Shown here in pieces: positions 4,956 to 59,223 of a DNA stretch of 64,000 nucleotides. The number at the start of each line of letters is the position of its first letter. The first letter of the stretch is position 1. This DNA is from Rhizodiscina lignyota (lineage: Eukaryota). The notes under the pieces were generated by a model, which saw nothing but the letters and a program-made list of their open reading frames with translations, did not search any database and was not told the DNA's origin. The stretch spans positions 1,116,001 to 1,180,000 of the forward strand of contig ML978126.1 in NCBI GenBank assembly GCA_010015805.1, written 5' to 3'. The translations under genes were made by a program, and so were the position numbers.

Positions 4956-5453
4956 GATGTTCTAAGAAAATCGTCTGGAGACAGAGACATTGGGAATTGA
5001 GGCTTAAACAGACAGATATATGTACATAGACAGTAAGAGAGATTCTTGAACGAGGCCATGATGACTATCTGAAAATGATATCTGTCGTGCGTACGGCACT
5101 AAGGCAAATCACGATACTTACCGTATATCCGCACCATTAGCGAATGAAGGAAGAGATTTAGTGCCGCATAGTGTCTGATACCATCGACACGGCTCGGAGG
5201 TACCGATGTATCAGTGCTGAGAGCTTTTGATAGAAGACGGTGAGGTCGTTTTTATGCCGATATTGCCGGTAGAGTACTAGCACATAGTTCTGCATTTGAT
5301 CCGAGTTCGCTTAAATACCGATTACTCAAGCCGAGATCGGACCGCTTCCCTCACGTGCTCTCGCGACTGACAGCTGGAGCTTCGAGCTCTGAAGCGTGGA
5401 GAGTAATCCACATCTCAAACGCGCTCGCGAGGGACAGCTCCAGTCCAAGCGCG

Positions 5454-6546
5454 ATGGACATCACACCTCAGTACTACGATCTATGCCGACAGGTTCGACC
5501 AGGCATCCAATTGAAGCTTTACACCTTCAACGTGGACACCCTCAACGAGTTCCTCAAAGAAGCGTACCGCATAGTGCACACCACTTCCCCCATGTTGTCC
5601 CCAACTCATGGCTAACAAACCCCAGAATACACACATCTCAGAATTAGTAACCTACCTCCGCCGCATCCGCCCGGCGTACCTCAGCCTATCGCAACCTGCG
5701 CGCCACACACGCCTCCGCCAATCGACCGACACGCACCTCACCGACGTCCAGCGTGCGCAAATCGATGCCTCCACGTCGCAATTGCTCTCGCAGATCAACG
5801 CGTCCATCACGCAGCTGCATACGGCCGAAACGGCCAGAGCAGAGGGGTACATCCAGATCGCGGCGAAGAAGCGGCAGCGCGGGCTGGGCGTGCTGAAGTC
5901 CTGGGCTAGCGGGGGAGGAGTTGTTGCAAAGAGCCCGGAGGAACAGGAGGAGGATGGGCGGGAGGAGGCGCTGAGGCTGTATAGAGAGGAGGTGGTGAGG
6001 TATTTGCGGCGACGGCTGGAGCGTGCGGGGGAGGCGCAGAGGGGGATGGTCGAGGTGCGGCTGGAGAGGGAGAGGGAGAAGGAGGCCAGTGTGCTGTATA
6101 AGATCCGGGGGGCTGAAGGATCAAGAATGGGTGGGAGTGGAGATTGGAGTAGGATGGGATTTGCTGGTTCTGATGGTCTGAGGGTGGAAGAGCTGCAACG
6201 GGAGAAAGAGGCGGAAAGCGAATTGAGCCCGGAGCAGTTGCAGCTCTTTGAGAAGGAGAATTCTAGTATGCTGAAGCATTATACGGATCAGCTGGACCAG
6301 GTCAAGAATGCGGAGAAGAGCTTGATTGAGATTTCGGATTTGCAGACGACGCTGGCGGCGAATCTGACTGTACAGGCGGATAATATAGACATACTGGTGG
6401 AAGACTCATTCATGACGCACGAAAACGTGGGCAAGGGAAACAAAGAGCTGAAAAGGGCAAGCGAGAGGAAGAGCACGGCACAGATGGTATTTTGGACTAC
6501 GTGTGCGTTTTGCACCGGGTTGGTGGTTTGGGACCTGATATTCTGA
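5454..6546 (+). CDS. UFE1: ER Qa-SNARE Ufe1/syntaxin-18
   Basis: MDITP start, EFLKEAYRI/NTHI, LTDVQRAQID, ELSPEQLQLFEKEN, a SNARE heptad region and a C-terminal TM ending WDLIF; intron 5574-5625. Confidence 0.92.
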
Positions 6547-6783
6547 GCGAGCAGAAGTTCCATACCCAAGTTTATATTGGCTCATGAGAGACGGAAGTGG
6601 AATTGGTATCCATTTTGTCTAACCAGGACTCCTGGATATACACAAATAAAGGCACCATGTCGCAGTGCATAATAGAATCAGAGCATAGAAGCATTCCCCG
6701 TCAACCAGCCATATCAGCATCACTTCATCCCGTCATCACCGTCATCTCGACACCCTTCAAGAGTGGTATACCACCTGGCCAGA

Positions 6784-8280
6784 CTAGTTCGTGGCTCTCA
6801 CAATCTTGTTTATGGCCTCAGCCACGTACTGGACGTTGTTCGTGTTGATACCAGCCATTGAGACACGTCCGTTCTTCGTCATGTAGATGTGCGAGTCTGC
6901 CCTGAGCTTCTGCACCTGTGCCTCAGTCAGGCCGGTGAAGCTGAACATGCCAATCTGATCCGTGATGTGGTTCCACGTTCCAGGCGTGCCAAGCTCCTCG
7001 AGCTTCGAGCGCAGTGCCTTGCGCATCTCGATGATGCGGCTAGACATGGTGCGCAGGTCCTCCTCCCACATTGCGAAGAGCGCGGGGTCGTTCAGGACGA
7101 GGGAAGCAATGCGGGCACCGTAGGCTGGGGGGTTCGAGATTTCAGAGCGCTGAAGAATGGCGAGTTGAGAAGCAACACGAGTCGCAACATCTGTGGCGTC
7201 CGAGGCTGGAGCAGCGACGAAGTGGAAGCATCCAGCACGCTCGCCGTACAGGCCAAAGTTCTTGGCGTATGATTGCGCAACGACCAGCTCGAAGCCTTGC
7301 TCGACGAAGTAGCTGATTGCCCAGCCGTCGCGCGCAAGATCACCGGACGCGAAACCCTGATACGCGCAGTCGAAGAAGGGGAAGAGGTTCCTCGCCTTCA
7401 TGACCTCTGCGACCTGCTTCCACTGATCTTGTGTGGGGTCGACACCGGTGGGGTTGTGCGCGCATGCGTGCAGGAGGATGATGGAGCCCTCAGGGGCAGA
7501 CTTGATGCTCGAGAGCATGCCATCGAAGTCGAGACCGCGGGTCTTAGCGGAGAAGTAGGGGTAGGTGGTGATGGGGAGGTTGACGTTGCTGAAGATCTGG
7601 TTGTGGTTGGCCCACGTGGGGGAGGAGAAGTACACGGACGAGGTTTGGCCGGGGCGGTAGAACTTCTTGAGGAAGAGAGCGCCGAGATGGACAGCTCCAG
7701 TACCGGAGATGGTTTGCAGTGATGCCACCTGTTCGTGGAGTGAGTATGTCGTGGTCAGGACGAAAGGTTCGTCGAAAAGGAAGCATTGAGCTCAGGTATG
7801 ATGTAGGTCATGGAACGCACCCTCTTCTCGCTAATAGCAGGGCTATTCTTCCCAAGAATGAGCTTCTGCGAAGCGCTTGTGAATTGCTGAAGACCGGCAA
7901 TAGGAAGGTATTCGTGGTCGAGGTTCGGATCGCTTCTCAGCACCGCATCCGCCTATGCAAAGTCAGAGAGTTATGTTTCAGAATATGCGCCGCAGCTTAA
8001 GGCTACAATGAGGATCAATTACCTTCTTGACCACTGGCAAGACCCACGGCTTTGCATTGTCGTCTCTGTAAGCTCCAATGCCCAAGTCGACCTTCTTCTC
8101 AAACGTGTCTGCCCTGTACGCGGTCATCAGCCCGAACAGCGGGTCCTCAGGCGCCTTGGGGACGACATCTGCGGCGAAGGACGTGGTCTTGTGGGTGCCG
8201 TTGGTAGCCATGTGTGCCGATAATTGCTGTAGTCTTCGTGTTGGTTGTGGGGGAGGATGTGGAGTTGCGGAGGGAGACAT
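6784..8280 (-). CDS. AAT2: Aspartate aminotransferase, cytosolic type
   Basis: KVDLGIGAYRD, QTISGTGA, HACAHNPTGVD, DCAYQGFASG and the PLP-lysine motif SYAKNFGLYGER; introns 7953-8022 and 7729-7820. Confidence 0.96.
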
Positions 8281-9500
8281 TTTTTAGAGCTGGGCTCTGC
8301 TGCAAGAAGCTCACCGCAACGCACCACCAAAGCCCGTGCTCCGATGCAGCCTCTTCCTTGATTCGGACGCGAATCCCGCGGGAAGAAAATTCCTTTGACT
8401 GCTGGCGTTTGCTCTGACTCGATCACGACAGGCGAGCGAATGCGGCGACGACAGATATCGCATGCAATGGACACTCGACGGTTATATCCAGGTGCGCGGA
8501 CCGTTCACTCAAGCTTGTGACGCTCATGCATCGTTTGGACTCGGGATCTCTTATGTCATTTTCGCCTCGGTGACAGGCCCTGAAGCCACGAGATTCGGAC
8601 GGCACTCCTGCATCCCTTTCACGCAGTATTGAACCTCGGCCTAGCACTAGAGCATAGCCACGAGCGTTTCGCCCTCCTGCTCCATGCCCGGCAATATGCC
8701 TCTAAAGCAGATTCCGCTGTCGGCAGAGAGACGGCGATGACCAAACCAAACCAGCTCTGCAGGTACAATGCATTTCGTATCTCCCATGCTTCCCGCGCAT
8801 GCATGCAGCGAATAAGACCGAGAGAATTTCACACACTACCAAATTCACCTCCAGACCAAGAGATGAAAGTCTGAGGCGGCGCAACAACAACCGCCGTAGC
8901 GCATACCAATCAGGAACCCCTGCATGCGGATCATCCCGCTGCGCGATGCTACTCTCGAGTTCATGTACGAGTTGGAATATAAAAGCTCACGCTCCAAAGC
9001 CAAGGGATGTGGGAGCAAACACCCCACTATGTTTGGGTACAGGCGTTTTGGCTGTTGGTATTCTTGCTAGTGACAGATCCCTGTTGATTGAGCGGTCGTG
9101 CTCGCTATCATTAAACTTGATTGATGATCACCATCGTTAAAGTGCAGTGAGTATTTCTCCTTTTCAACAATGTCCTCATTTTCGACGTCCACTTCCTCGC
9201 ATTGGTCCCCTGGAGCGTCGACGTCGTTGCAATTGGTAGTCTCATGGGTTTTCTCCTGCATCGCACTATCTCTGAGGGTAGAATGTCAAATTACTGCTGT
9301 CATGCACGCGGAGCCCTCTTTCCTGCTTCAAACAATAAAACTCCTGCTTCTGGGCCCCTTTCTGAGCGTATTAGACGTTGCGGTCTGGTATCGATCCGTC
9401 GCATCGAGTCCGGATCAACAATAGACAAAAGACTCAGAGGGAGCTCATTACCCATCGACAATCGTCACGGAAATAATTGTCCAACATATGATTCTGTACC

Positions 9501-13942: not shown

Positions 13943-14447
13943 GGATGTGGTGGAGCGGAGTGCAATAGAGTTCGCATTTTGTTTTAATATCGCGTGTAAT
14001 CAAAAGATACCCAAAGCATGATGTAAAGCATTCCAGATTTTCTGATTATAAAGACATACATCTGCATTTATGTATCCGTATCTGCAACTTTCGCACTCGT
14101 CCGCACTATTCAGCTACCTACTTTTCGCTAAGCCCAATGCAGCCAATAATGTAGGGGTGTCAGACAGCTCAGCCTGCAGCCACCTCTAGGTAGCCAACTC
14201 AGGCTTCATCATCCTTCAGAGCATTGCAGAAGGTCCCATCAGGGGAATATACCTACGGAGCTGGCTTCGACATGTGCCGTATCGAAATACCTGTCATATG
14301 TGGTAAATCATCCCGGCCTCTGGTCGACTAGTGGTACTATTTACTGGGCAGCCTTTGCCTTTGTCTGAGTGGCAGAGGGGACAAACGTCGTAAATCAAAG
14401 ATTTACGTTAGAGAACAACCTCGAGGATTGTATTCTACCTCACCAAG

Positions 14448-16646
14448 ATGGCTCCTCTTGTCTTTCTAGGAAATGCGGAGCTCGGAATCCCAGCTTTGTA
14501 CCTCCATGACCTGACTGGCACGCCCAACGCTGAACGGCTGCTCAACATATCGCCAACAATACATCCAGAGAGTGCTAACGTTTTACCACGGCTCAAGCAA
14601 TTCGCGCCCACTGAGTATGAGTTGTTTTCGGAGAAAAACGCGGACAAGAAGAGCATACCTTTCAAGCTCATCACGACAAGTCCAACATGGAATGAAGCGC
14701 GCACAACCTCGTTCTTAGCTGTCAGCTATTGTTGGCATGCAAACGACTGGACGGTCGTGTCACGGTTATTTGAGAGTGTCGACCCTGCACGATGGGAACT
14801 TCCTCTCTCTCCGCCGATGATCTCGGCAATCCTTTCGTTAGCAACTTGCGACGACGAAGGCATCTGGATCGATCAGATTTGCGTTAACCAAAGCAATGAG
14901 GATGAAAAGAAGAATGCAATAGAAAACATGGACACCATCTTTCGAAACGCACGCGTTGTCGGGATCTCCATTGAAGACGTGAATATCTCCGAGACTCAAG
15001 AATGCGCTCTGGAGATCTTCTCTGTGACTCAAGAAAGTGCTCTGGAGACGATATTCTCCCACAACCTCGATGAGGAGCGTCGAAATAAAGAAGAGATCCA
15101 GAAAGCTCCCAAACCAATCACACTCGGTCTAGTTGAGGACGTCGTAGCCGCTGGCCAGCTGGAAAGACGCCATATTGGAGGACTTGTTTCCTATATCAAC
15201 AGCTTCTTTTGCGCGCGATGGTTCTCCAGGGCTTGGTGCGTCCACGAGTATCAATTGAACTCCCAGCGCAAATTCATAATCCCAGGACACGATCACAAGT
15301 ACATTACGTTCGATTATTCCTTTTTCGGGGATCTCTACTCGGAAGTGGAGAACCTATTCCCACGCTCTCTGAGCGACGAACTATGCAACCATAGTGGTTT
15401 CTTATCATTCTTGTGGGGACCTCGCCTTCGGACGCCGGATGACTCGTATACCTCATCATCCATCTTCGAGATGTGCTACCTTGTAGAAAACGCAAGGTGC
15501 TCACGCCTGGAGGACAAGATATCGATCGCGTGTAATATCAACGGCTTACCACTTCGCTTCAACGGAAGCGTAAGTGGTCGCTGGGAGTGTATGAAACTGT
15601 TAGCGCTACTTGCATTGAGCGCTGGGGATGCTTCCGTATTGGGCTGCGAGGGAGAGCCCTGTGAATGCAGTAAATTCTCCGGCCATTTCTCATGGCTTCA
15701 GTGGCCTGGATTCAGACCTGGAAAGGGTAATGATTTGAGGCTTGTCGCGGAGAATTATGCATGGACTACCCTTTGCTCTAGGTATATGCAAAAGATGAAC
15801 GCAGAGCATCAGATCAAAAGTATCAATGAGCAGTCAATCATGATGGATCTCTTACAATTTCACGGCAATCTCAAAGAGCCGACGACGACTGGCTATTTCC
15901 GAGCGGCGAATTTCATCCAACGCTTTGGAAAACTGGAGCAACATCTGAAATCGTCAGACGACGACAATCATCTGAAGTTGGCGTTTCAGTTCGGTTTACA
16001 CAACATTGCACATATCGTCGACTTCGGTTATACTTGGTTTCTCAAGTCTTTTAGAACAATGAGCCGGTCATTCCTGGATCGTGTTGAAAATATCTACGAG
16101 AGGCACTCTCCCTTATTAGAAGATGTTTTTAACGAAGGTTCGGACAGTTTTGAGATGCTATTTCGAGCCAATAATGGCCGCCCGAGGCAATTATCTGGCG
16201 AAGCACCTGAACAAATCGCTATGTACTTGAGTTTCATGCTGCTCGGCCTGGAAGCGGGAGATTTTATTGATAATGACGACACTGACACAATGGTGGTACG
16301 CGGAATACGACTTGGAGCTGACCATGAATTCGGCATAGTCTATCTCGACCGGGAATATCTTGCTCGGTATTCTCAAGGAGACGACATGATCCTCGCCATT
16401 CCAGCTGCATTAAACACACCTGATGCGATTGGTGTCAAGCGAGTTTGGGTGCTTCAGAGATTAGATGGACGTTCTAAATCCTGTTCTTTGATTGGCAAAG
16501 GCTACTTGATCGGAAGCAATGCTGTTCCAATTGACGGCGACTATGTCACTTACATGACAGATGTGGAGATCATGGGACCACGTAAAGAAGAGAGCAGCAA
16601 GGAATCGACCTCAAACAAGATTATGGACATGATGGATACATCATAA
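14448..16646 (+). CDS. HET-domain (heterokaryon incompatibility) protein
   Basis: HET blocks FLAVSYCW, IWIDQICVNQ...MDTIFRNA and WFSRAWCVHE, later CSRLEDKISI and SWLQWP; intronless, 732 aa. Confidence 0.9.
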   Translation: MAPLVFLGNAELGIPALYLHDLTGTPNAERLLNISPTIHPESANVLPRLKQFAPTEYELFSEKNADKKSIPFKLITTSPTWNEARTTSFLAVSYCWHANDWTVVSRLFESVDPARWELPLSPPMISAILSLATCDDEGIWIDQICVNQSNEDEKKNAIENMDTIFRNARVVGISIEDVNISETQECALEIFSVTQESALETIFSHNLDEERRNKEEIQKAPKPITLGLVEDVVAAGQLERRHIGGLVSYINSFFCARWFSRAWCVHEYQLNSQRKFIIPGHDHKYITFDYSFFGDLYSEVENLFPRSLSDELCNHSGFLSFLWGPRLRTPDDSYTSSSIFEMCYLVENARCSRLEDKISIACNINGLPLRFNGSVSGRWECMKLLALLALSAGDASVLGCEGEPCECSKFSGHFSWLQWPGFRPGKGNDLRLVAENYAWTTLCSRYMQKMNAEHQIKSINEQSIMMDLLQFHGNLKEPTTTGYFRAANFIQRFGKLEQHLKSSDDDNHLKLAFQFGLHNIAHIVDFGYTWFLKSFRTMSRSFLDRVENIYERHSPLLEDVFNEGSDSFEMLFRANNGRPRQLSGEAPEQIAMYLSFMLLGLEAGDFIDNDDTDTMVVRGIRLGADHEFGIVYLDREYLARYSQGDDMILAIPAALNTPDAIGVKRVWVLQRLDGRSKSCSLIGKGYLIGSNAVPIDGDYVTYMTDVEIMGPRKEESSKESTSNKIMDMMDTS

Positions 16647-36293: not shown

Positions 36294-39120
36294 TTACCAT
36301 TTAAGGCCACTGTCCTCCTGCTTGTCCTCAGAACTTGGGATCTTACCAGTTGTAATCATCTCCATGTACCCCTTTCCCCACAACCGAAAGGCCTCACTAA
36401 CCCCTCCGCACTGTATCAACTTCTTCTCCAACTCACTGAGCTGAAACGGAAACGTCTTTCCACCGCACTTGATCTCTCCCTTCTGTATATCAAGTTCTAT
36501 GTCAACACCCTCTTCTGCAGTCCGGTAGAATTCATCGTCATTTATGATGACTCCAAGCAGGCCAAAGTTCGGCTGGTTTCGCCCGTAGATGAAGGAATAG
36601 CTCTTCGCGATAACAGCTTTGACTCCACAACCCTGCAGTGCTGTAACAGCAGATTCGCGAGAACTCCCGCATCCAAATGCTTTGCCGGCGACCACGACGT
36701 TCATACCAGAGGCGACTTTCGAGCGGAACTCGGGATACACGTATGACATACACCATGTGCCCTGTTCCTTGAACGACATACGTGCGTTCACTAACGCTTG
36801 CGCCGGAATGATTGCATCGGTATCGACGAAGTCGCCCAAGGTGATGACTTTTCCCTTGACAACGTTGTTTTCAGAGGAGCTCGTATCAGCTGTTACAGAC
36901 GTCGGTAATGTTGCCTGGAATTTTTCGCCTCTCTCACTTCCTGGCTCCTTTGCCGCTGTTCCAGGTTCAACATACTTTACTTCCGTCGCCCCTGAGGGTT
37001 TCCTTCCAAGGATGGACTCAAGTCGTGCAATATCAACTTCATCTAGTAGCGGCTTCGGGTCTGTGATCTCCATACCAAAGCTGCTCGCTGCAACGGTGAC
37101 AGCAGATGCGATGCTACCAATTGCACCTCTCCCCATTCTATTCTTAAAGTTCCTATTCTGGCTGCTCAACCACACTTCTCCCTCTTGCCCAACATCAGCA
37201 CTGATTCCAACGCAATAGCTGCAACCTGGAACGCCCACTGTGAAACCGGCATCCTCATAAATTTGAGCGAGTCCACGGTCCTTGAGTTCCTTTAGAATAG
37301 GCCGAGAGCCAGGTGTCACCCTTCTTTTTCCCCGGCTTACTGGCTTCAGCCCTTTCTTCAAGCCCACTTCAAGGACCATGGCTGCAAGAATAAGGTCTTC
37401 ACGCGCAGTGGTACAAGCGCCGATAAAGCATCCATCTAGCTTCTTCCCGGCAATCTCACGGGCCGGCACAACGTCATCGGGTGAGGGATATCGTGCGATA
37501 AACGATTCGACCTGCGAGAGATCGATAGTATGACTCGATGCGTAGACGGCATCTGAGTCTGGCTTGTAATACGTCGCGTACTTCTTGTATTTCGGGTTCT
37601 TGCGTTTGTTGATGAATTCTTGCGTGATCTCGTCAGGAGCAAAGATGCCTGTGACTCCACCAAACTCCTGCAGCGATATGAGTAGGAGATATATGACCGA
37701 TCAAGAGTCATTACATACGGTTGTCATATTCGCAATAGCGAACCTCGCATCACAACTCAAATGCTTCAAGCCAGGCCCGGTATACTCCACCACCTTGTCC
37801 GCGGCGACAGTGTTCCGCTTCAGCTGCTGCAAGACGTACAAGATGACATCCTTGCCACTTAGTCCCGGCTTCGGTTCGCCCACGAAACGAATTTCCGCCG
37901 TCTCCGGAACCTTGAACCAGGTCTGGCCGAGCACCAGCGGCATTGTAACATCCGCTGCACCCATGCCCACTGCAAGACAAGATACAGATCCGGCGGAGCA
38001 CGTATGTGAGTCGGAGCCGATGACGATCATGCCAGGTTGAGAGCGCTCGCGCATGAATTCCGTATGCCTAAGCGCATCGTACACGTTAGCGGACATCCAA
38101 ACCACCGAAGACTGCACAATCTCAGTTATCATTAGGGGAGTTATGTAGCACATGATTTGGGAACTGGAGAAAATGGACACCGTGATCAAAGGTGGCTCCA
38201 TTTATGATGGGTATGTTGAACGTTAACATACATGATAGTATACTGAACTGAATGTTAGATGCGAGCTCTATGCATTCTGAGGGGGTAAGTTGTTGGGGCA
38301 GGAAAACTCACGTTGTTCCCTTGATGCTCCGTCATCTTGAAAACTTGCCGCGCTCGTTCGCTAGCTTCGATGAGCGGCTTTACCTTCGGGGTGTCCATTA
38401 TTCGGGGTTCGACGACGTGGTCACCTGCGATCCAGAGTCTGTCGTTGCGCCAGATGCCAGGCTTGCCCAGCTCCTCATACGTTACCTCCATACCCTACGG
38501 ACAGACGCGTTAGCAGTTGTCTTTGACATGCAGGCGATGAGAATGTCGGTAGCCGAGGAAACTCACTCCCCAAGATATATCAGATGCAATCACCCAATCC
38601 ACATCGACACGAATCACATCGCCTGGCTTAACTTCTCCCTTTCTCTCGACGTCGTGGGCCGCAAAGATTTTTTCAGTTACGGTCATGCCCCGGCGGCCAG
38701 GGGGACGTGAGTCCAGTGGTGGGACAGCTGTCTCGTAGCGATCCTGGGAGTTGAGTGCCTCAAGGTAGGCGGAAACTAAGAACAAGACTTCGCTTTCATC
38801 CTTGCCAGTCAGCGACTGGTCCGCTGTAAGGCCAAGTCCACCGAAATCTGTCGACGTTGTGCTATGAACGATGGCATCTCGAAGGGCTTCAGCTTCACGC
38901 GTAAACTTCTTGGATTCAAGGGCTGAGGAGACGGAGTCCAGATATTTGAGGATACCAGTAGATGCGTCTACGTATGCATTAGTTCAAGTCTATAATGTTA
39001 AGTGGGGGTATTCGACACGTCCTTACCAATTGCGGCAGTTTCACTCCCTATATCAATTTTCCGCAGTTCTTGGAGTTGCTGCAGTACCTGCTCTGACCCT
39101 GAAAGTGTTCTTCCGGGCAT
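36294..39120 (-). CDS. Aconitase-superfamily [4Fe-4S] hydratase/isomerase (LeuC+LeuD fused in one chain)
   Basis: [19 protein letters not shown], cluster ligands GACTT and [17 protein letters not shown], swivel-domain VDTDAIIP and FGCGSSRE; several introns and an 11-nt exon at 38232-38242. Confidence 0.93.
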
Positions 39121-39749
39121 GATGTCTGAATATTGTTCCGGCCAATCAGACACTATTGATTTGATATGCGAGTGATTGTAGCCCGAAGCAAAAGCTAGTC
39201 GGTATACGTCTTATGTATCTGCTGTTTTCTTAGCTAAACATAGAAGGTTCTCAATCTCGGCGGTTTCGTCCAAGTCAGGAAGCTTGCGAAGCCGGAGCCC
39301 ATGAGAACAAGAGGTTCCTCCACTGGCAACATGGTCATCTCATCCGAAAAGCGGAGGTGGTCATCCCGCAAATGGCTGTGAGTTGGAGCTTTCCCCAGGT
39401 TAATGTGCGTGGTCCAATCCCCACGATCGGCGCCCCCGAGAATTCGGGATTTCCTTTCCGTGGTAAATCGCCGGCAACGTCTACCGATTTCTCCACATTG
39501 TTGATTGATACATATTTCAACCATCGCGAATTTACATTGGCCGGACCTGGATTTTTATTGTCCAAAAAGATCCGGAGTTCTACTGTGAGCTGAGTCATTC
39601 GATCCTGAACACCCAATCAGAATAACAATCCATCTGTCAAGCGATCTTGGAGCGACCCTAGATCCACTTGAAGTTACCGTAGAGGATCATCCCTTTTTAT
39701 TCATTCCTTGTTACTTCTTTCCCTTAATTTCGGTCGGGAGATATTCATA

Positions 39750-40812
39750 ATGGCGTCAACCGGTACAAACGGCGCCCGTTATAACCCTAAGCCTGCCGCG
39801 GCCAGACTGCGAGAGATGCTAGCAAGACCAGACAGCTTGGTAGCATGCCCGGGGGTTTACGATGGCCTGAGTGCACGTATTATGTTGAGAGAAGGCTTCG
39901 ATTGTCTCTATATGGCATGTCCCAATCCGTTTCAGCCAACAAGAGCCTGTGCTGATAGTGAGAAAGACTGGAGCAGGAACCGCGGCGTCCAAATTGGGAA
40001 TGCCAGACTTGGGCATCATTACATTGAATGATATCCTTGAGAACGCATCTATGATTGCATCCCTTGATCGAACTGTGCCTGTTATTGCAGATGCAGATAC
40101 TGGATATGGCGGGTACGATCCATTTAGTGAAACTGCATTGACAGAAGTCCACTAATTGGCATCATATAGTCCAATCATGGTCGCTCGAACTGTTAAATCG
40201 TATATTCAAGCCGGCGTCGCTGGTCTGCACATTGAAGACCAAGTCCAATCGAAGAGATGCGGCCATCTCGCGGGCAAAGAGCTTGTCGATCCGGAGACTT
40301 ATTATGCGCGTATCCGAGCAGCTGTACTAGGAAGAGAGGAGATGCGCTCCACGACAGGTGGAGATATTGTCATTATAGCACGTACTGACTCGTTACAATC
40401 GCTCGGCTACGAAGAGGCACTACTCCGACTGAAGAAGTGCATAGAGATCGGCGCGGACGTGGCATTCCTTGAGGGTCCAACGAGTCTGGAGCAGATGAAG
40501 CAGGCATGCCAAGAGCTCGCTCCCGCCCCAGTGCTCTTGAATGCGGTACCTGGCGGTGTCACGCCTCACGTCTCGCAGGAGGAGGCAAAGAAGCTTGGAT
40601 ACAAGATAATGATCTATCCCGCGATATCGTTCGAAGCGGCGTATCAAGCTATATGGGATTCAGCGAAGGAGTTGAAACAGACGAAAGATATTATCATTAC
40701 AGAGCGACAAAAGAAGGAAGGCGTGAAGGCAGTCTTTGGAGTCTGCGGATTGATGGATTGTGTAGAGTTTGACAAGAAAGCAGGAGGTCAATCGTACAAT
40801 AAAGGTGTATAG
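39750..40812 (+). CDS. Isocitrate lyase/PEP mutase superfamily lyase, 2,3-dimethylmalate-lyase type
   Basis: PGVYDGLSAR, YMTGAG (spliced), DADTGYGG, HIEDQ..KRCGH, IIARTD, FLEG and MIYP; introns 39915-39966 and ~40093-40169. Confidence 0.93.
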
Positions 40813-42411: not shown

Positions 42412-43688
42412 TTAGAAGATATACAGTGGATGCTCCGGCAGCTGGTAGCTGGGGTCGTTGAAGCGGAGATTGCGATCTAGATCCGATATTGCCTGCAGTT
42501 CAGCATCCGACAGTTCGAAATCGGTTACCGCGAGATTCGACTTCAGACGGTCTGGGTTGTTCGATTTTGGAATGACCGCGATACCACTAAAAATTTCCCT
42601 TGTCAGCATTATCCTCAGGGTCCAGTAAATTGCCCAAACCTACTGCTGTACTGCCCATCTCAGCAAAATCTGTCCAGGATCCTTGCCGTGCGCCTTAGCC
42701 GCCTTCACAACTGGTTCCGCCTCAAACAGCGGTCCAGTGCTCTTCGCAACCTTGTTGAAATTTGTTGGCAGTTCGAGGAAGGACTGTGGGCCGTAAGATG
42801 AGTATGCCGTGACTGCTGTACCAATCTCCTTTGCACGTGCGATCACGTTCGGCTGCGTGAGGTATGGGTGGTGCTCGATCTGGAGAGCGGAGATGGGGTG
42901 GCGTGCGTAGCGGTAGACATCGTTCAGAAGCTGGACTTGGAAGTTCGATACACCGATGGATTTGGTGATACCTTCGTCGACGAGCGTCTCGAGCGCTTCC
43001 CAGGTTTCGCGTATAGGCACGTTGTCCTCCTTCACGATGGTTTGTGCTTCATCTTGCCACCAACCCTACGGTTTTGTTAGCCTCGAACGAAACCATGCTT
43101 TCCCACACAACAGTTAGAAGCATGGAATCTATGAGACATACTGGTGTTCGGATTTTCGCTGGATCGATGTAAGGAAGGGACACTGGAAAGTGGATGAGGT
43201 ACAGATCCAGGTAGCCCAATCCCCACGCATCATTCGAGACCTTGGCCATCTGCAGCGCATGCTCGCGCTTATGATAGTTATTCCATAGCTTGCTAGTGAT
43301 GAAGACGTCTTCTCGCTTCACCAGGCCGTCGTTGATCGCCCTCTGCACACCCTCGCCGCACTCCTTCTCGTTTCCGTAGTCGTATGCGCCATCGAAGAGA
43401 CGGTACCCAGCTTTAATAGCCTAACCATAGCCACAATTAGCTTGAAAGAATCTTGTAAGGGCTCCAGCAAAGACAATTGAGACTGAGACGAACGTTGTAG
43501 ACGGTATCCGCGGCATTCTCGTTCGGGACCTTCCATGTGCCGAAGCCCACCAGGGGCATCTCCCTGCCGGACGCTAACTTGATCGTCTTGCTCATAGCTG
43601 CTGTCCTCGTGAAGCTCCGGATTTGCTGTGATTGGAATGAACGAGCGAAAAGACCAATTCTCCTCTGCGCAACTTGAACACTCCGCAT
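42412..43688 (-). CDS. Aldo-keto reductase, D-xylose reductase-like (core starts at ATG 43595)
   Basis: [66 protein letters not shown] and LRFNDP; three introns. Confidence 0.93.
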
Positions 43689-45300
43689 TTCTGCTTCGAT
43701 GCTTCAGCCGGCTGGCTTTCTCTTAAATAGCAATGAGCGCCCAGTCGTCAAGTGATCTGCTTTGCTCGTAACAAACATCGCGCAAAGAGCCGCTCGAGTG
43801 AGTTAAAGTTCTCACAGGCATTAGCCTAAAATGCAAAATACCACTTGCAAAAGCTGGCGGCTGTTCAGGCTGATTTGCCCTCCGAGAGAACGATTGGCAA
43901 CTACGCACCAAAAGGCCCACCGGAGCAACCGGGCTGGGAGAGGGCTCCGAGAGCATCTCAGCACCACCCAAAAGTGGGACGTCGCGGTCCGCTAGGAACG
44001 AGATAGATGGGCGCGGAAATCTTATCTCACAAATTGGAGAAGCGGCATAATACGGAATAATTCAGCCGAGAGGTTCTGAGGCATCCTAGCCTCCATATGC
44101 ATCTGTTCATCTGACATACATGTGGACGACATCGTGAAAGGAGGAGACGATACAGCGGAGATATAAGGGGCGTCCGGAGACAACGTCCATTTTCAGCGCT
44201 GTGGCACTGGTTCCCCGCTGCTCCAGGAATTGTCTGGAAATGGCCACATTGACAGCCATGTGTGCGGCGTAGATGTTGATCAGCGAGAAAGAATTTGCCT
44301 CTCGGCTTTTCCGACATGGTTGTATATGTACAAAGAATCTATAGCCTAGATGTCACAGCTTCATGCCCTAAGGTGGCTAGATCAGAATGTGAAATGACCA
44401 CGGGCTCGATTTTGTGCAGTCTCTCCTTCAGTAACATGTTTAACGACATCATTCATATTCGATAGGTGGCTTGGTGGACATCAGACCGACCTCCATTATA
44501 GTTTCATGTTGCGCTTCATGCGTCCTTGGTTGAGACCGATAATGACGTTGAAGATGGATATACCCCTCGTGAGTACGAATACGGCATCACTATGATCGCC
44601 TTCTTCTTGTCCAATACAGTCAACACTGCGCTCAATCAGCATCGTACCGCCGTCGTAAGATTGGCCAGCTGCAATGGTCGAGACAGAAGCCAACGTAGTC
44701 GAGCTAGATGAAGCGGGAGGCTACCATCCGCAGCCGTAAACAAGGATGCGGCTGTGGTCACAAGAGTAGCATCAGCACTTGAGATTGGCGAGGGATCCGA
44801 GTCCTCATAACTATCTTAAGATGTAGATGCTGTCGGTGTCGTAGCAGAGCTAGAAAACAATGAAGGATCTACAGCTACGACCATTGCAGAACCAAAGCTT
44901 CACAGTTTGGCATGGACCACTGTGGAGAGAGAAGAGCGGGCAGCACCGCCCAAGGTAGAAGATCGAGCTTCATAGCTACAAAGACATGAGAATCTCTCCG
45001 AGGCAATAGTGAAAATAGAAGAGACGATGTCAAAGAAGAGAGAGGAAAGAAGTGTTATGTAGAAAAAGTAGAACGAATTGATCGAGTGCAGAAGGAAAAT
45101 ATTGTCGAGAGGCTAAGTTGGAGTGTACTCAACAACAGGTTAGATTATGAAATGAACGCGCGGAAGTCATCAATACCAAGAGTTCATTCTCATCTCCAGG
45201 TAAATATCGATATGTGAAAGAGGGTGCCTCGTGAGTTTGATCAGGACAACATTTCGAAAACAGCGAGTACCTATGTCTGAAAACGAAAAGAAGTCAACTA

Positions 45301-46308: not shown

Positions 46309-47928
46309 TCAAACAGTGGCAGCTTTCGTCCTCATCAGCTCATCGAAATTCAAGACTGATTTTCCAAGTGCTAGTGCCCCCTCGGTACAATCATCCTTAT
46401 CGCTCCATTCTTTTGCAGTGTGACTAAGGCCGTCTTTGGCCCTTACAAACACCCTACGCAAAAATCAGCATACGGAAATGTGAGTAATGCTTTGCAAGGG
46501 AAGTGCTTACATGGCAGTAGGTACTAGGGTCGTCGTCATGGTCGAGTCATGACCCGTTCCGGTTCGAGACCCAATCCCCTTGTCACCACATGCCCTCTTC
46601 ACGCAGTCAATGGCTTCAGGCCAGAAGTCGCCCGGCAACAGATGGATGTCGCGCTTCATCTCAAGCTCCAAGCCGTGTAGTGCAGCAATGTCCTTGACAC
46701 GCTTTTCGATTGCTTGACCCATTGCTTCTTGAGCCACTCCGTCTTTGTTCATTAGACAGAATGATAACTTGGTGTTCGACTGGATGTTACAAGCGCCCCA
46801 TGGACCTGACAAGATGTTCGTCACGGTGGAATCGCCCTTATTCTCGAACGCAACTTTCTCCAGCTCGGTGATGACCTTTGCCGCTCCCAGTAGGGCATCC
46901 TTTCTCTTAGCCATCGGGTAAGTATTTGCATGGCCATCTTCACCTTTAAATTCCATGGAGTCTGGAGAAGAAATGTTAATGTGACTACGCAGGTTCAACT
47001 TATCCAATCGAATACTCACACCAAGTCATGCCCTGCCAACCCTCTACCCATCCGACTGGCTTGCCGGCTTTCTCTAGGTCAGAGGCTTGCTCACAGTGGA
47101 TCTCAAAGTGCGCGGAAATTGGAAACTCTTCGAAAGTATTCGGACCATCGCCAACGTAACCAATCCTGGCCAGCTCTGAGCCCATGGTGATTCCGGAATG
47201 GTCATTGGATAGCGATGCATGCGCTGCTTTGACCGTCGACTGGCCTGCGTACACAATGGATGACCCGAGCAATGGGAAGAATCGAGCGCCTTCCTCGTTC
47301 GTCCAGTTGATGAGTACGAGAGGTGCCCTAGTCTTGATACCTTGCTCTTTCATGCTGCGAAGTACTTCGAGGCCACCAATGACCTATTTTGGAATCGTCG
47401 TTAGCAAGCTGGACACTCTGGTGCCCTTGCTAAATGACTTACACCTAGAGGACCGTCAAATTTTCCTCCAGTGGCGACACTGTCCAAGTGGCTCCCCATG
47501 GCAATCGGCGGAATACTCATGTCTTCCCCTTTGATAAGGGCAAACTGAGTTCCTGTCGCATTGACCTTGTAGTCCGCGCCGAGCGCGAGTACTTGGTCGC
47601 GAAACCAGTCTCTGGCTTGCTTGTCGTAGTCCGTCGCGCAAAGACGCGTAAGACCACCCGGTGATGGTGCACTCCAGTGTGCTGTGTAATGAAGGTCATT
47701 CCTGGTAGAGATTCGGTCAACCATATGATCAGGTCACTTGAGCCACCTCACTTACCAAAGCCTGTCGCCATTCACCTTGAGTTTCTCAGCTAAAGGCGCA
47801 TTTGCTACGGTTGCATAGCTCTTCCTGCCAGCGACAACCGATATAGCATTCCTGCCAACGGGTGTATAGGTCGCTCGAAACGTCTTCACAGAGACCTGCC
47901 TGGCGAAGGAGTTCGTGAGAAGGCGCAT
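46309..47928 (-). CDS. M20-family N-carbamoyl amidohydrolase (beta-ureidopropionase / allantoate amidohydrolase / hydantoinase-carbamoylase family)
   Basis: LKVNGDRLW, GGLTRL, GSHLDSVATGGKFDGPLGV, NWTNEEGARF, FEIHCEQ, GHDS and GLSH; several introns; Arg-rich N-terminus. Confidence 0.92.
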
Positions 47929-52135: not shown

Positions 52136-52394
52136 TTAATGCTTGTCTGAATGCCTGCCAAAGTGCCCCACAGCCCGCTGAAAAAGCAAGCAACACACCA
52201 ATCATCTCTTTGCTCAGCCTCGAACAAGCGCTTTATGAAAGCAGGTCGACGACAGCCTTTTGAAGTTAATCTATTTTCGCCGCACATCTAAGATTCTCCC
52301 TCTCTCATCTCTTTCGTCCCCTCCCTGCTATGCTCAAAGGCCCAAGCAATGAGCTTGAACCAAATGACCTTCTCATGCCTCCCTCCAGGCGATC

Positions 52395-53663
52395 ATGCCA
52401 TCGCATAGCACCTACAGATATAGCCCTCTTGGGCGACCGGGCTGCAGCATACGGCTATTGCGACACTATCGCAGTGCTAGGGACATGACGATGAGAATGT
52501 TCAGCCTGGAAACTTTCCCAGTGACGGATTGCCCGCCATTCATTGCAATGTCATACACCTGGGAGCCCCGATTCCCAATGCACCATCTGGAGATAGAGCC
52601 GGAGCAGTTCCTTGAAATAGGGCACAACTTACACCTCGCGCTTAACAGGATATGCAGGATCACGGGCAAGGCAGGCAACTTCCGTGCACTGTATTCCGAA
52701 AGATGGAAAGAGTGGCCCGAATACGAACGCCGCCGTTTCTTGGAGCAGACGAAGTACTGCTGCTATTTCTGGATCGATGCAATTTGCATAGACCAGAGCA
52801 ACATTGCGGAACGAAATCAGCAGATCAAGTTGATGGGAAATATCTATTCCGATGCGGTTTCAGTCATGGTTTGGTTGGGCGAAGAGGAAGAGCGAGATCC
52901 ATGGGCGATAGCCAGATCCCTCGGAGACTTTGATAGCATTCTGGCCAAACTTCAGACTATGAATGCTAGCAAGTCAATCATGGAACGATTCTTCACAATG
53001 GACGATCCATCTATGACGCTGAGAGAGAAGATGACGACTCTGCCATACTGGAATCGACTATGGATCATACAAGAGCTCATGCTCGCCCAAGACATCCTGG
53101 TCTGCTGGGGATCTTCCGTATTTCCCTGGCGATGCCGTGAGAGACAGCGCACAGCAGCTGGAAGTCGGCAAAGGTGTGACGTTTGCTATAGCGCCGAGAC
53201 CGCTGAAGGAAGTCATCCGGACGAGCACCGTGACTTGGAGTCATTATATTCGATCAACAACACCCACGCGTGGGGCGGAGGAAGCTTCCATCTAATCTTC
53301 GACCAGAGGAAATTTTATGAAAGGATATCCAACCGATATCGCTTGCCACTGGACTACTTGATTGAAGCGTTCGCGCTTCATGAATGCCACGACCCAAGGG
53401 ACAAAGTCTACGGCTTGTTGGGTCTCGTCGATACGTCTGACCGGACAAGATTCACCACAGTCACTGCGGACTACCACAGGCCTGTCGAAGATGTATATCT
53501 GGATGTGCTCTATGTCGCGCGGGAGTCACCGCGCCTCAAGTCGATGGGAGCAAAGTGGAGATTTCAGGAGATTCTGAGGAAAGCGCTGGAGATTGAGGGA
53601 AAGGCTATCAGTTTCGAACAGTTTGTCGAGGATTTCAATCGTCGGAGGACAAAGTGGAACTGA
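52395..53663 (+). CDS. HET-domain protein (HET-6-like)
   Basis: IRLL, FIAMSYTW, NLHLAL, FWIDAICIDQSNIAERNQQIKLMGNIY, YWNRLWIIQE and CHDPRDKVYGLLGL. Confidence 0.92.
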   Translation: MPSHSTYRYSPLGRPGCSIRLLRHYRSARDMTMRMFSLETFPVTDCPPFIAMSYTWEPRFPMHHLEIEPEQFLEIGHNLHLALNRICRITGKAGNFRALYSERWKEWPEYERRRFLEQTKYCCYFWIDAICIDQSNIAERNQQIKLMGNIYSDAVSVMVWLGEEEERDPWAIARSLGDFDSILAKLQTMNASKSIMERFFTMDDPSMTLREKMTTLPYWNRLWIIQELMLAQDILVCWGSSVFPWRCRERQRTAAGSRQRCDVCYSAETAEGSHPDEHRDLESLYSINNTHAWGGGSFHLIFDQRKFYERISNRYRLPLDYLIEAFALHECHDPRDKVYGLLGLVDTSDRTRFTTVTADYHRPVEDVYLDVLYVARESPRLKSMGAKWRFQEILRKALEIEGKAISFEQFVEDFNRRRTKWN

Positions 53664-55027: not shown

Positions 55028-56955
55028 TTCGATGTATTTGGAATTGGAGTCTACCGTTAATAAATGGAGATGTCCAAACTTTTGGTTCTTGTCAGGTAGA
55101 AGGTTAAAATGACTGTACGGATATCAATGTCGCCACCGGTCCGTTGCTTGCTTAAGGCTTATCTTGAGCTTCCCTTGCGACGTCACTGGATTGCAGATCG
55201 CAAGCACAGAGTCTAAGGCAGCAGTTATTTCGACGCTTGAGATGACGACGCACGTCACAATGATAGCAGAAGCTGGGGTGTCTTGCATGTGGGGTTCAAC
55301 ACGAACAGATGCAGGCGCTAGCCCAATTGGGACGTATTCCACCGGGCGACAGCAAATACGATCCTGAGTTTGAGTTTTCGCTGGAAACTGTCCGCTTTCT
55401 TGTCCAATCAAAGTATTGCCTCCGCGTGGCCACTGAGCAAGAGTACGCGACTACGACCAGTAAAAATCGTACGTATCTCGAGGATCAACGTCAACCAGTG
55501 CGATGCCTTTGACCAAACCTTATCCAATCTCGACTCGAATACGTGGCCAAGTCGTGGAGTCAAAAGGACATTACGTGTAGTGCCAAACAAGACTACCAAC
55601 GGGATGACGCTCGAGGGAGACAATCCATTCAGTTTTCTCAAGAATCTCGATACGGGGACATGGCCAAAAGCAAACTGACAGAACCATTTTTCCGGACAAG
55701 CCTGTCGCGCCTGAGATCGACAAGATGGGCCTAGAGGAGAGACTAGCATCCATCCAACAGGATGTGCTGGTTTTGACCTTATATTCGCTCGGCATTGAGG
55801 GATGGTGGTGTCGCTTATGCCAGGCCAAAATCTAGAACGGTAGAGCGCGTAGGTAACACGGGGAATTAGTTGTGCGTCGCCTATTTTATATATATGAAAA
55901 GGACGATAGCTACTAAATCGCGTAGGCGGCGCGTTAACGGATCCTGATACGATATCCATGCCGAAGCCTTGTCAGGGCTCAAATTGTTCTCATACGCACG
56001 GCAAATATTTTATCGCCCGTACACTGAATAAAGATGATTCCGAAACGGTCCTCTGTTCCCCTTGCTATTGGTATACGAAGAACAAGAAGCATTTCCAAGG
56101 CCGGGTGATGTTTCGGACAACAAAGATGTGCAAAGCAGTTTGTGAAGGTGCGTTTCAATTGGGTACCTAGCGCGTGAAGAGTGAGAAAAAAGTTGAGGCC
56201 AGCACTTTAGGAGGCTGAGCAGCATCAGTGTATAGCTTCTATGATAACGTAGTGTATAAATTTTCTAATAGATCGCTTTTGCTTAGGCCACTCTAAAGAA
56301 CGTATAACCAAGTTTTCAGAGATAATCTCAATTCCTATGAGGTGTAATAGCGATTAGCCTTCCGGTGTTAAGCTTTCCTGCGGCCAAGTATTTTATCAGC
56401 TGCGGGCCCGTGCGTGGCGTGGTTAGAGCGTGGTGGCTTTCAGCGTCTACATAAGCACATACGCGAGACATTAACCCTGTGCACGACATTTTTCCTGATA
56501 AACTTTTCGAAAACTCATGGTCCAAATGACATAGCATGCCTTTTCCAAATGGTGTTACCTCCGCTATTCGATGGGAGCTTCCCTAATCTCGCCCATTTGC
56601 CCCTGGGCGCCTGTAAAAACGTTCTACAAGGCAGGAGAACAGAGCTAGACTACGCTGCTAGGCTATGCTGTGCTACATCTCATATGTCTATCGCTCATTA
56701 CCAGTACAGTCCTTTGAAGCTTTCATGTTCTCTTTAGAATTAATCAATACGGAATAACAAGAAGCTCTCGCGAAAGTATCTGATATGCCTTGAGCTAAGA
56801 ACGACGCAGGCCACAAAAGCGTTCCTGCGACAGCTTGATCCTTCCTACCTCCCTTTCGTCTGCCGCAGTAAGTACTTTCCAACCCTTTACAATTCTCTAC
56901 TGACTGTAATAAAGCCTACAGATGACATTTCCTACTTCCTCCCTATTCGCTCTCC

Positions 56956-59223
56956 ATGAGCTGTTCAAAGGAAACCACAAAACCTGGACCTCCCAGCCCA
57001 TCACCCAGCGGATCGTCGACTGTGCACTTGCACATAGATGGAAGCTCCTCCGGAGCCATTGAGTACACCCAGGAACGGAAACACATTTTTCAAGACAAGG
57101 ATGATATAGTAGTGAAGAGAAAGCGGCTGAAGTCTGGCGACCATGGCAGTACCATCTGCGGTGAATGTAAACGGATAGACTTTAACGGCGTTCTTGACCT
57201 TACAGCCGATATCAGAACTCTGTGGCGGGAGCCGGAGAACGGCATTTTGGTTGCAAACCTGGCAGCTAGATGCACCGGACCACCGACAAATGGTTGCTCT
57301 CTTTGCAGCCTTTTTTTCGCGGCGAGGATACCTTCGGACAGCGCCGAGTACGAACTCCGTGCCCTCTCCTTCATGGGATTTATTACTTGTGTCAACTTCT
57401 CTAAATGTTCTTGGGACTTTAGAGCTAGAGACATTCCTCAGCTTTGTGTTGTCCCTACTGGTATTCGTCCAAAGATGCTGGCATACCACATTATTGATCA
57501 TGTTGCAGCGCACGGCTCAATTTTACCCACAAAACTTGAAGACACCATGAATTCAAACTCGATTTTCTATCCACGACTTGTGAGTGGCCATGTTGACTTC
57601 ACAGTTGTCAAGGAATGGACCGAATACTGCAAGCTTCATCACGGCAGACTTTGTGCAACCGAGAAGGCACTCCCTTCCGGTATGAGATTGATCGATTGCT
57701 TTCGCCCACGCCCAGCCATTGTTCCCGCAGTCGGACGACGTCGTTATGCGGCCCTTAGTTATGTCTGGGGACAAACCATGCAAGAGCGTCGAGAAACAGT
57801 GCCGCCAAGCACGAATGACCTTCCTCGTGTTCTCCCTCAAACACTCATGGATGCAATTCAAGTGTGTAAAGCGATGGACATCCCATTTCTTTGGGTTGAT
57901 CGTTACTGTATTCACCACTTGGATCCTAGGGAGGCACAGGAACAACTTGATCAAATGGATACAATCTACGAGAGCTCGGATATTACGATCATCGCCCTTG
58001 GGCCGGATGCGGAATCGGGGCTTCCTGGCATCTCTACGATAAGAGAGACTCAACCGAGTGTGGGACTCCACGACTTTCACCTCTTCTCAACTAAGCCCCA
58101 TCCACACCTTGCAATCCGCAATTCGACTTGGTCTCAGAGAGGTTGGACGTTTCAGGAGGCCGTTTTATCTCGCCGTCGTCTTGTGTTCACTGAACACCAG
58201 GTGTACTTTGAATGCTGTGCAATGAATTGCCAATAGACTCTTGGGGCAGACTTACAGGAGATCCATTCGACATGGAATGACATGAGCTCGAACCTTTTTC
58301 AAGATGGAATTTTCACTGGGCAAAATATTCAATTTGCAGACGTGGACGGCCATGACCGGACCGCAGTATCGAAATATCAAAGAGCTCTTTGCCTGATTTC
58401 CGAATATACTGGTAGATCACTTACATTTGAGTCTGACTCGCTGAGAGCTTTTGCTGGGATTTTACATTCTCTTCAAGAATCGCGACCAACTGTTAAACAC
58501 CTCTGGGGGCTTCCGGTGATTCTGGACGAAGTTCCTTCTCCCGCAAGTCGATCTTGTAATTTCTCCCTTCTTTGGCTCCATCAACATAAGAGGGAGAACA
58601 GGGTTCGGAGACGCGCTAACTTCCCATCTTGGAGCTGGGCCGGATGGGAAGGTGAAGTGGATTTCTTGATCGCATCGACACGAAAGTATGACAGTCTTGT
58701 CTGGTATCCAAAGATCATGGGTCCGTTGGTGAAGGTATGGGTTGAATATGAGGAGAATTCCCTAGTAGATCTCGATTACCTGTTCAGTCGCCAAATGCCA
58801 GATTCATCTGAACTACAATACCCATTGGCCATTCACCTCGAGGTCTTCGTAGTGCCGTCCGCGGTAATCATTCACCAAGCTGAGCCGACTAAACTGGGAT
58901 GGCGCTTTCGACTATTCGGCCATGTCACCCTTGTCGAATGTTCCGAACCGCACAAATACTCCATGAATGGACTGAGAATGTTCAAAAGCCAACAATTGGA
59001 ACTCATCCTAATGCCTGATGTAACGCCATTTGGACCCCACCGTATGGTCGGACTAGTGATTCAAAATCAATCTGGCTCATCGTCTCGTGTTGGGACATGG
59101 CGCACGGCGAATCACTCGCTTCACGATCTGGAGAATAGCGCCCTGGCTGGATATTCTGATGGCTCATGGGAGTACTTGGAAAGAGATTTCAATTGGATAA
59201 GAAAAAAGGTGCGTTTGGTCTGA
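56956..59223 (+). pseudogene. HET-domain (TOL-like) gene with a single premature TAG at 58234-58236
   Basis: CGEC..CSLC, RLIDC, YAALSYVWG, LWVDRYCI, WSQRGWTFQE and VYFEC; the same frame continues with YTGRSLTFESD, WGLP and FPSWSWAGW. Confidence 0.85.

Follow-up and report, generated by a model that had tools for sequence, protein, structure and literature searches.

Why should an aconitase-like hydratase and a carbon–carbon lyase stand head-to-head in a fungal genome? The question arises from a 64,000-nucleotide stretch of Rhizodiscina lignyota (assembly GCA_010015805.1, contig ML978126.1, positions 1,116,001–1,180,000; called the window below), in which a gene for a [4Fe-4S] hydro-lyase of fused LeuC-LeuD type (the hydratase) diverges from a gene for a lyase of the isocitrate lyase (ICL)/phosphoenolpyruvate (PEP)-mutase superfamily. 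Judged from the sequences, it is moderately probable that the two make up a conserved module that handles small branched dicarboxylic acids in two steps, in which an alkylmaleate would be hydrated and then cleaved. A co-regulated hydrate-then-cleave route had been proposed in the initial annotation of this DNA; the conserved adjacency, the hydratase loop resembling that of isopropylmalate isomerase (IPMI) and the lyase marker residues support it in part. Evidence for co-regulation and for any link to nicotinate or gentisate genes did not emerge, and a pathway for the characterised fungal 2,3-dimethylmalate lyase (DMML) falls away.

Both gene models, built from coordinates (Table 1), are open frames with zero internal stops, and their start codons are 629 bp apart, in agreement with the gap of about 630 bp first described. 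The head-to-head pairing is conserved across Dothideomycetes and Sordariomycetes, and probably in Eurotiomycetes. In a scan of metagenome contigs, of which the best 80 of 358 confirmed loci were analysed, 12 loci bear the N-terminal region typical of the window hydratase, and the lyase lies divergently upstream in eight of them (best-segment identity 41–72%; two of the eight, L039 and L109, are close relatives); in the other four the contig ends no more than 393 bases upstream of the match. Twelve other named fungal assemblies had hydratase and lyase both among the best 120 matches per search, and in seven of these the two bear consecutive tags or accessions among the matches listed: Verruconis gallopava, Elasticomyces LTR17 and LTR97, Clonostachys chloroleuca, C. 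rosea IK726, Xylariales sp. PMI_506 and Seiridium cupressi. Chance adjacency would be about 0.001 per gene (assuming 11,000 genes and five lyase-class copies), and the observed adjacency is far above it. In the synteny check called for by the earlier proposal, the pairing is thus often conserved. The Aspergillus niger gene An15g07730 is presumably the family member XP_001397294, going by the order of accessions. In the available text of two A. niger studies An15g07720 (OAH class, for oxaloacetate acetylhydrolase) and An15g07730 (cytosolic aconitase) appear as table rows only, with neighbouring numbers and both expressed (PMC6320622, PMC6862759).

The hydratase belongs to the aconitase superfamily of [4Fe-4S] hydro-lyases. 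Its cluster cysteines C431, C495 and C498 are invariant in 57 of 57 aligned homologues; the DSH, SSQNRN and GSSR motifs and the cysteines are intact in 55–57 of the 57. The swivel domain passes TIGR02087, the model of the LeuD/DmdB small subunit (118.4 bits, cut-off 108.95), which is the sole family model passed by the protein among those scored, and both the three cysteines and the fused swivel domain of the initial annotation are confirmed. Orthology to Leu1 was rejected (153 against a cut-off of 560, TIGR00170/TIGR00171, and a separate position in the tree), as were orthology to the homoaconitase Lys4 (TIGR00139, 189 against 530) and to the mitochondrial aconitases Aco1/Aco2 (TIGR01340, 140 against 825). 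Separate genes of the same genome pass or score highly in these families: LeuC/LeuD on contig C15 (688 and 258), TIGR00139 on C8 (1245) and TIGR01340 on C4 (1259), with one exon of a C9 gene scoring 444. The distinction from Leu1 and Lys4, on which the earlier reading depended, was accordingly borne out.

By sequence and predicted fold, the closest solved relatives of the hydratase are subunits of the archaeal isopropylmalate/citramalate isomerase and homoaconitase (root-mean-square deviation 2.9 against 4kp1). An Arg in the swivel loop after the DTD motif marks homoaconitase; enzymes specific for dicarboxylates that bear a hydrophobic side chain lack it. The window protein has Val639 at this site, as in IPMI 3vba, where the archaeal homoaconitase 2pkp has Arg; only one of the 57 homologues has Arg there. 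With Val639 in the loop, such dicarboxylates are the probable substrates.

The lyase carries the KRCGH loop (residues 132–136) and the DADTG, IEDQ and ARTD motifs of the ICL/PEP-mutase lyase branch, and its best solved matches are DMML 3fa3 (E 4e-92) and OAH 3lye (E 1.7e-86). The KRCGH loop and the Pro of MIYP (251–254) where OAH has Ser, both described initially, were found again, and the Cys and the Pro are invariant in the best 120 matches (120/120 each). Ser at the position of Pro254 is an OAH marker; DMML 3fa3 has Pro and OAH 3lye has Ser, and identity with OAH was rejected on this residue. The 2-methylisocitrate lyase PrpB was rejected as well (TIGR02317, 212 against 354), with Val and Glu at the sites of PrpB Thr212 and Arg241; among the best 120 matches the first site is Val or Ile in all and the second is Arg in none. 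The Pro pocket houses a C2 methyl group, and Thr212 and Arg241 of PrpB form a succinate pocket. By analogy with these structures, the marker residues would mean a C2 methyl pocket and no succinate pocket, which fits the pyruvate product foreseen in the initial annotation.

The genome holds five OAH-class lyase copies, and the paralogue on C11 is nearer to DMML than the window lyase (167.2 against 139.5 bits over the matching stretch). In a FastTree tree of 51 rows, DMML itself not being among them, a single branch (support 80) takes in all 15 paired lyases together with unpaired and untested rows; it lies apart from another branch (98) that contains Ser-type OAH-like proteins and the C11 copy. 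The paired lyases have V-(P/S)-G-G after a conserved Asn, where DMML and OAH have V-E-(H/N)-G. By these comparisons the paired lyase is best described as a sister subfamily of OAH/DMML and not as the DMML orthologue; the characterised orphan DMML therefore gains no pathway, and the hope of providing one for A. niger An07g08390 is lost, the more so since in A. niger the lyase beside the aconitase-family gene is An15g07720. One further lyase paralogue (on C3), aligned by tblastn, shows no KRCGH loop and contains a stop codon close to its end; it is possibly a pseudogene.

Ahead of the aconitase domain, the hydratase carries an extra N-terminal region. Since this domain begins at M126, the extra region is about 125 aa long; the initial annotation had recognised its presence (at about 110 aa) and missed its nature as a dehydrogenase remnant. 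Residues 11–120 are predicted to be helical (block pLDDT 75–93). Kickxellales homologues of the hydratase bear an Iso_dh domain, and a search with residues 300–800 of a 1104-aa Kickxella protein, a query that includes part of the dehydrogenase and so favours fusions, gave 928 matches, of which 102 of the best 120 have Iso_dh and aconitase domains together. Among these best 120 matches, fusions occur in Kickxellales, Harpellales, Mortierellales, Glomeromycota, Entomophthorales and chytrids, and in Blastocladiomycota, Piromyces, Neolecta and several protist transcriptomes; those of Fusarium, Clonostachys and Verticillium form a group apart. The dehydrogenase of the Kickxella fusion passes the leuB cut-off (457 against 353) and keeps its catalytic residues.

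A hidden Markov model (HMM) of the stub, built from alignment columns 1–118 of 57 unfused hydratases (Z = 1000), matched the C-terminal dehydrogenase helices of 6 of 37 fused proteins at E<0.001 (best 5.7e-8) and, with E allowed up to 10, those of 22 of the 37; among 740 control shuffles the best value was E 3.4. The profile alignment is unbroken from the stub region into the aconitase domain (about 51% identity over 749 columns including the stub). By these HMM matches and the unbroken alignment, the extra N-terminus is identified as a remnant of the C-terminal helices of an isopropylmalate dehydrogenase, a new finding. Only about 85 residues of the dehydrogenase align with the window hydratase, the complete domain being absent; the database protein gives no Iso_dh match and has no catalytic dehydrogenase part left. 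A LEALN-type stub motif is present in 64 of 75 full-length matches. With the full-length profile, the stub had no match to solved dehydrogenases at E up to 10, and none of these is among the Foldseek matches listed for the full hydratase model.

A quick IQ-TREE tree of 67 rows unites the 17 stub-bearing proteins in a single branch (SH-aLRT 100), which adjoins fused and fully truncated eukaryotic groups; Myxococcota- and KSB1-type bacterial LeuCD fusions lie outside these groups, and Leu1, Lys4 and Aco2 are on long branches. Since the tree does not fix the order among the eukaryotic groups, loss of the dehydrogenase by a fused ancestor is no more than the simplest reading. The hydratase is a member of the family that occurs as a LeuB-LeuC-LeuD fusion, retains the helical stub only and today travels with the lyase. 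A 2012 survey of fungal gene fusions reportedly may list the triple fusion. At locus L036 an intact fusion adjoins an acetolactate synthase small subunit gene, and, in the available text of PMC8880518, leuB1 of Mortierella sits in an ilv cluster and a separate Leu1 orthologue is listed alongside it; the hydratase half of the fusion therefore need not be the main leucine isomerase. The lyase was found in none of four intact-fusion metagenome loci, though three of the four are under 4 kb. The fusions of the Fusarium/Clonostachys/Verticillium type (P0362, P0379, P0380, P0384, P0387, P0388, P0394, P0395, P0397 and P0398) keep the catalytic Tyr, Lys and Asp of the dehydrogenase and differ at substrate- and cofactor-side positions, which suggests an active dehydrogenase with another substrate.

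Taking gene structure, conservation, ancestry and marker residues together, the two reactions, their direction and their substrate can be inferred as follows. The [4Fe-4S] hydratase would add water to a 2-methylmaleate, or isomerise 3-methylmalate, to give a (2R)-2-methylmalate; citraconate would be the simplest substrate, and 2,3-dimethylmaleate or other 2-methyl-3-alkylmaleates could also serve. The metal-dependent lyase would then split the C2–C3 bond by means of the KRCGH cysteine, without activation by coenzyme A (CoA), to pyruvate and acetate or propionate. Relative to the ancestral fusion, the downstream step would have switched from oxidative decarboxylation to C–C cleavage. It is doubtful that the specific substrate is citraconate/(R)-citramalate. 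The full scenario, an undescribed CoA-independent route of filamentous ascomycetes from citraconate or another 2-methylmaleate to pyruvate and acetate or propionate, built from an ancient eukaryotic leucine-type fusion of dehydrogenase and isomerase that was gutted and, by its hydratase half, re-coupled to a C–C lyase, possibly twice (the window type and the type of locus L044), with the stub kept as a structural cap, is possible, at somewhat less than an even chance. At L044 the hydratase, from another clade, is fused to a fully decayed dehydrogenase, and a distant PEP-mutase-family lyase lies upstream on the same strand; this one locus suggests a second coupling of hydratase and lyase.

Possible sources of such acids are on record. 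The available text of PMC6862759 indicates that A. niger makes citramalate and apparently citraconate, and that of PMC12130555 (section 2.3) describes maleate and D-malate in salicylate-fed Cochliobolus. The salicylate-induced 'maleate hydratase candidate' of the latter work was rejected as evidence for the present family: its reverse primer (PMC12130555) corresponds to a motif in the mitochondrial aconitase of the R. lignyota genome and in none of the proteins compared.

Several results weigh against the two-step reading. In the accessible open literature, an enzyme assay of the paired hydratase or lyase was not found. No conserved third gene occurs among the neighbours scanned in the eight lyase-bearing loci, nor among 94 long open reading frames (ORFs) from 12 loci, and the neighbours therefore name neither the substrate nor its source; major facilitator superfamily (MFS) transporters lie near three lyase-bearing loci and a Zn2Cys6 factor near one. 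Genes of nicotinate or gentisate metabolism, the settings of the dimethylmaleate hydratase DmdAB and the maleate hydratase HbzIJ, are absent from the long ORFs of the window and 12 other loci, short exons not being scanned. Co-regulation did not emerge either: co-expression of An15g07720 and An15g07730 in A. niger is not significant (r = 0.78, n = 4, p = 0.22), and in nine intergenic regions the top shared 6-, 7- and 8-mers are not above shuffles. Separately, itaconate was rejected as an inducer, the two A. niger genes changing by at most about 2-fold and ictA and ichA rising about 30-fold in the data available. Adjacency is missing, among the matches listed, in 5 of the 12 assemblies (Talaromyces proteolyticus, Thozetella, Scytalidium, Cladophialophora immunda and LTR10), although such a miss is no proof of absence, because the best 120 matches only were considered and both genes have paralogues. 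On contig C1, the second stub-bearing hydratase of R. lignyota faces an MmgE/PrpD-family gene, and its nearest lyase, about 9 kb away, has AtuA-family and enoyl-CoA hydratase genes next to it. Against the family profile, the archaeal subunits of homoaconitase score slightly higher than those of IPMI (248 against 227 and 122 against 111 bits), whole-subunit scores not separating the two types of specificity. Lastly, the lyase occurs in none of 80 prokaryotic loci of the nearest relatives, which therefore offer no bacterial precedent.

Metabolite repair is a rival reading. The pair would then isomerise by-products or surplus of leucine or citramalate synthases (citramalate, 2-ethylmalate, 2- or 3-isopropylmalate) and cleave the 2-alkylmalate to a 2-oxo acid and acetate. 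Descent from a LeuB fusion with a dehydrogenase above the leuB cut-off, the acetolactate synthase gene beside the fusion at L036, a steady moderate expression in the A. niger data available, and the lack of a conserved transporter or regulator among the neighbours scanned are in its favour. Even so, it is rather unlikely: a Leu3-type site (CCG-N4-CGG) is absent from the window intergenic region and present in only two of the nine regions tested, the hydratase would be redundant with the Leu1 present in the genome, and the Pro pocket suits a C2 methyl rather than an isopropyl group.

A methylcitrate-like tricarboxylate route, in which a PrpD-family enzyme would supply an alkyl-aconitate, the hydratase an alkyl-isocitrate and the lyase a 2-oxo acid and succinate, is suggested by the C1 paralogue facing an MmgE/PrpD gene and by the slightly higher profile scores of homoaconitase subunits. 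It is improbable, given that none of the 80 metagenome loci and none of the 80 prokaryotic loci showed a PrpD, that the swivel loop is without Arg, and that the lyase lacks equivalents of PrpB Thr212 and Arg241 and stays below the prpB cut-off. Equally slight is the chance that the two genes have a promoter and a condition in common and no metabolite, the lyase acting on oxaloacetate (by hydrolysis or decarboxylation) or on another substrate. Adjacency is lost in some copies, and a side OAH activity of DMML was reportedly described by Narayanan in 2009; against this, the head-to-head order is kept at 41–72% lyase identity across fungal classes, Pro and not Ser occupies the OAH site, and the two chemistries join directly. 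Finally, a role of the hydratase in leucine synthesis as a back-up isopropylmalate isomerase, with the lyase incidental, as fusion ancestry and the IPMI-like loop might suggest, is very improbable, since a true Leu1 is present and passes the cut-off so widely missed by the window gene, A. nidulans is described in the available text with a single isomerase gene, luA (PMC8262921), and an adjacent lyase would drain the leucine pathway. Hydration followed by cleavage remains the favoured reading.

Table 1. Features of the hydratase–lyase locus and of related loci (window positions unless a locus is named)
Feature	Position	Strand	Basis
Hydratase gene, 803 aa, fused LeuC-LeuD type [4Fe-4S] hydro-lyase	36294..39120	-	gene model by coordinates
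Hydratase exons (6)	39120-39027, 38967-38567, 38494-38312, 38242-38232, 38067-37719, 37667-36294	-	model
Hydratase exon 1, residues 1-31, two short predicted helices before the remnant	39027..39120	-	model and predicted structure
Hydratase residues 33-118, LeuB/Leu2 C-terminal-helix remnant and old fusion linker	38708..38965	-	HMM, profile alignment, predicted structure
Codons of cluster ligands C431, C495, C498	37212..37415	-	model, alignment
Swivel (LeuD-like) domain, residues 615-771; Val639 in loop after DTD	36393..36863	-	family model, alignment
Hydratase micro-exon, 11 bases	38232-38242	-	
Hydratase intron, 164 bases	38068-38231	-	
Divergent intergenic region, 629 bp, candidate shared promoter	39121..39749	.	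model
Lyase gene, 317 aa, ICL/PEP-mutase superfamily, OAH/DMML sister subfamily	39750..40812	+	model, trees
Lyase exons (3)	39750-39914, 39967-40112, 40170-40812	+	model
Lyase first intron, GC-AG	39915..39966	+	model
KRCGH catalytic loop (Cys134; residues 132-136)	40252..40266	+	model; Cys in 120/120 best matches
Pro254 of MIYP (251-254), Ser in OAH	40618..40620	+	alignment; Pro in 120/120 best matches
Aldo-keto reductase	42481-43722	-	
M20-family hydrolase	46507-47733	-	
HET-domain genes (3)	14412-16643, 52368-53660, 56926-58233		
Second-copy region	L026:2906-4408	-	
Second-copy region	L026:5229-7745	+	
Second-copy region	L017:9037-9999	-	
Second-copy region	L018:3289-6076		
Lyase paralogue (G000:C3), possible pseudogene	L023:5965-6965	-	
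Stub-less hydratase (G000:C15:168400-170600)	L028:1399-3605	+	
Hydratase and distant lyase of L044	L044:3665-4544; 5054-8474		

The database hydratase of R. lignyota (P0001) has the same length as the model and matches the query exon at 100%. The public lyase model (P0121) has 321 aa; its four extra residues fall at the GC-AG intron and are absent from solved relatives, and it appears to take a nearby GT as donor instead. The hydratase micro-exon is followed by an intron about three times the length of the others in the gene. An aldo-keto reductase gene lies about 1.7 kb past the lyase, and these and the M20 and HET genes of the window do not recur beside the pair elsewhere, except for a HET gene in L039.

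The third hydratase copy of the genome has no stub, and the own-genome search gave no lyase match near it. It belongs to a third clade in which the stub is wholly lost (also L052 and L055); in three of four loci members stand head-to-head with a sugar-porter MFS gene, and L052 also has a hydroxyacid dehydrogenase/four-carbon acid sugar kinase gene. The A. hiratsukae member P0404 (1062 aa) was considered as a hydratase joined to the lyase and rejected: it is joined to an ArsH arsenic-resistance protein, probably through merged annotation of neighbours. The nearest prokaryotic relatives (L114-L193), from Myxococcota, KSB1, Ktedonobacteria and others, are LeuCD proteins in one chain; their swivel loop has a conserved FCHL, and they lie near dehydrogenase, thiolase or homocitrate/isopropylmalate-synthase-like genes. 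An isocitrate/isopropylmalate dehydrogenase-family gene occurs in 13 of the 80 prokaryotic loci, and 101 flanking ORFs from 35 of these loci include five thiolases, two synthase-like proteins and one citrate synthase.

The module reading gives two orphan fungal subfamilies, a cytosolic third aconitase-like protein and an OAH-class paralogue that is neither OAH nor DMML, a specific and cheap test. Should citraconate or (R)-citramalate be what the route consumes, it would be a likely product-loss pathway in citramalate-engineered Aspergillus strains, and a means by which fungi could draw on branched diacids that come from soil, from plants or from the cleavage of aromatic rings. The fusion occurs in chytrids, zygomycetes, arbuscular mycorrhizal fungi, Neolecta and protists, a spread that suggests two origins for the branched-acid isomerases of fungi, and the stub of the hydratase would be the visible scar of a gene fission. 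A. fumigatus AcoC (XP_747512), a third aconitase-like protein that is 15% identical to AcoA and barely expressed according to the available text (PMC3556520), is possibly a member of the hydratase family, although XP_747512 was not seen among the family clusters of the matches listed. Neither the pair as a module nor the triple fusion is described in the open literature as far as its accessible text goes, subscription journals lying mostly outside the search.

Among known systems, the LeuB-LeuC-LeuD fusions, annotated by domain only, share about 51% profile identity and a eukaryotic branch with the window hydratase, and differ in keeping a complete dehydrogenase with its catalytic residues. 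Of the solved enzymes, MJ0499/MJ1277 (isopropylmalate/citramalate isomerase) and MJ1003/MJ1271 (homoaconitase) of Methanocaldococcus are the best hydratase matches. Identity is about 31–39%, and the window subunits are fused, bear extra N-terminal helices and do not reach the large-subunit cut-offs. Maleate hydratase activity is reported for the LeuC enzyme of M. jannaschii in the available text of PMC8307300.

OAH (3lye) has fold and catalytic loop in common with the window lyase, which has Pro for Ser and falls in a separate clade. A. niger DMML (An07g08390, 3fa3) is its best solved match and shares KRCGH and Pro, but the C11 paralogue is closer to DMML, the paired lyases differ from it in the V-(P/S)-G-G motif, and they stand outside the clade of this paralogue and the Ser-type OAH-like proteins. 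The closest parallel by description is the nicotinate fermentation of Eubacterium barkeri, in which the hydratase DmdAB is followed by 2,3-dimethylmalate lyase. There, too, a LeuCD-type hydratase is paired with an ICL-superfamily lyase, and the window swivel domain is above the LeuD/DmdB family cut-off; the fungal pair differs in its single-chain hydratase with a dehydrogenase stub, in its spliced genes and two-gene extent, and in that the scanned neighbours include neither a nicotinate nor an isomerase gene. The pair is seen as a real and widely conserved two-gene module that probably works like the DmdAB–Dml step and has an origin of its own.

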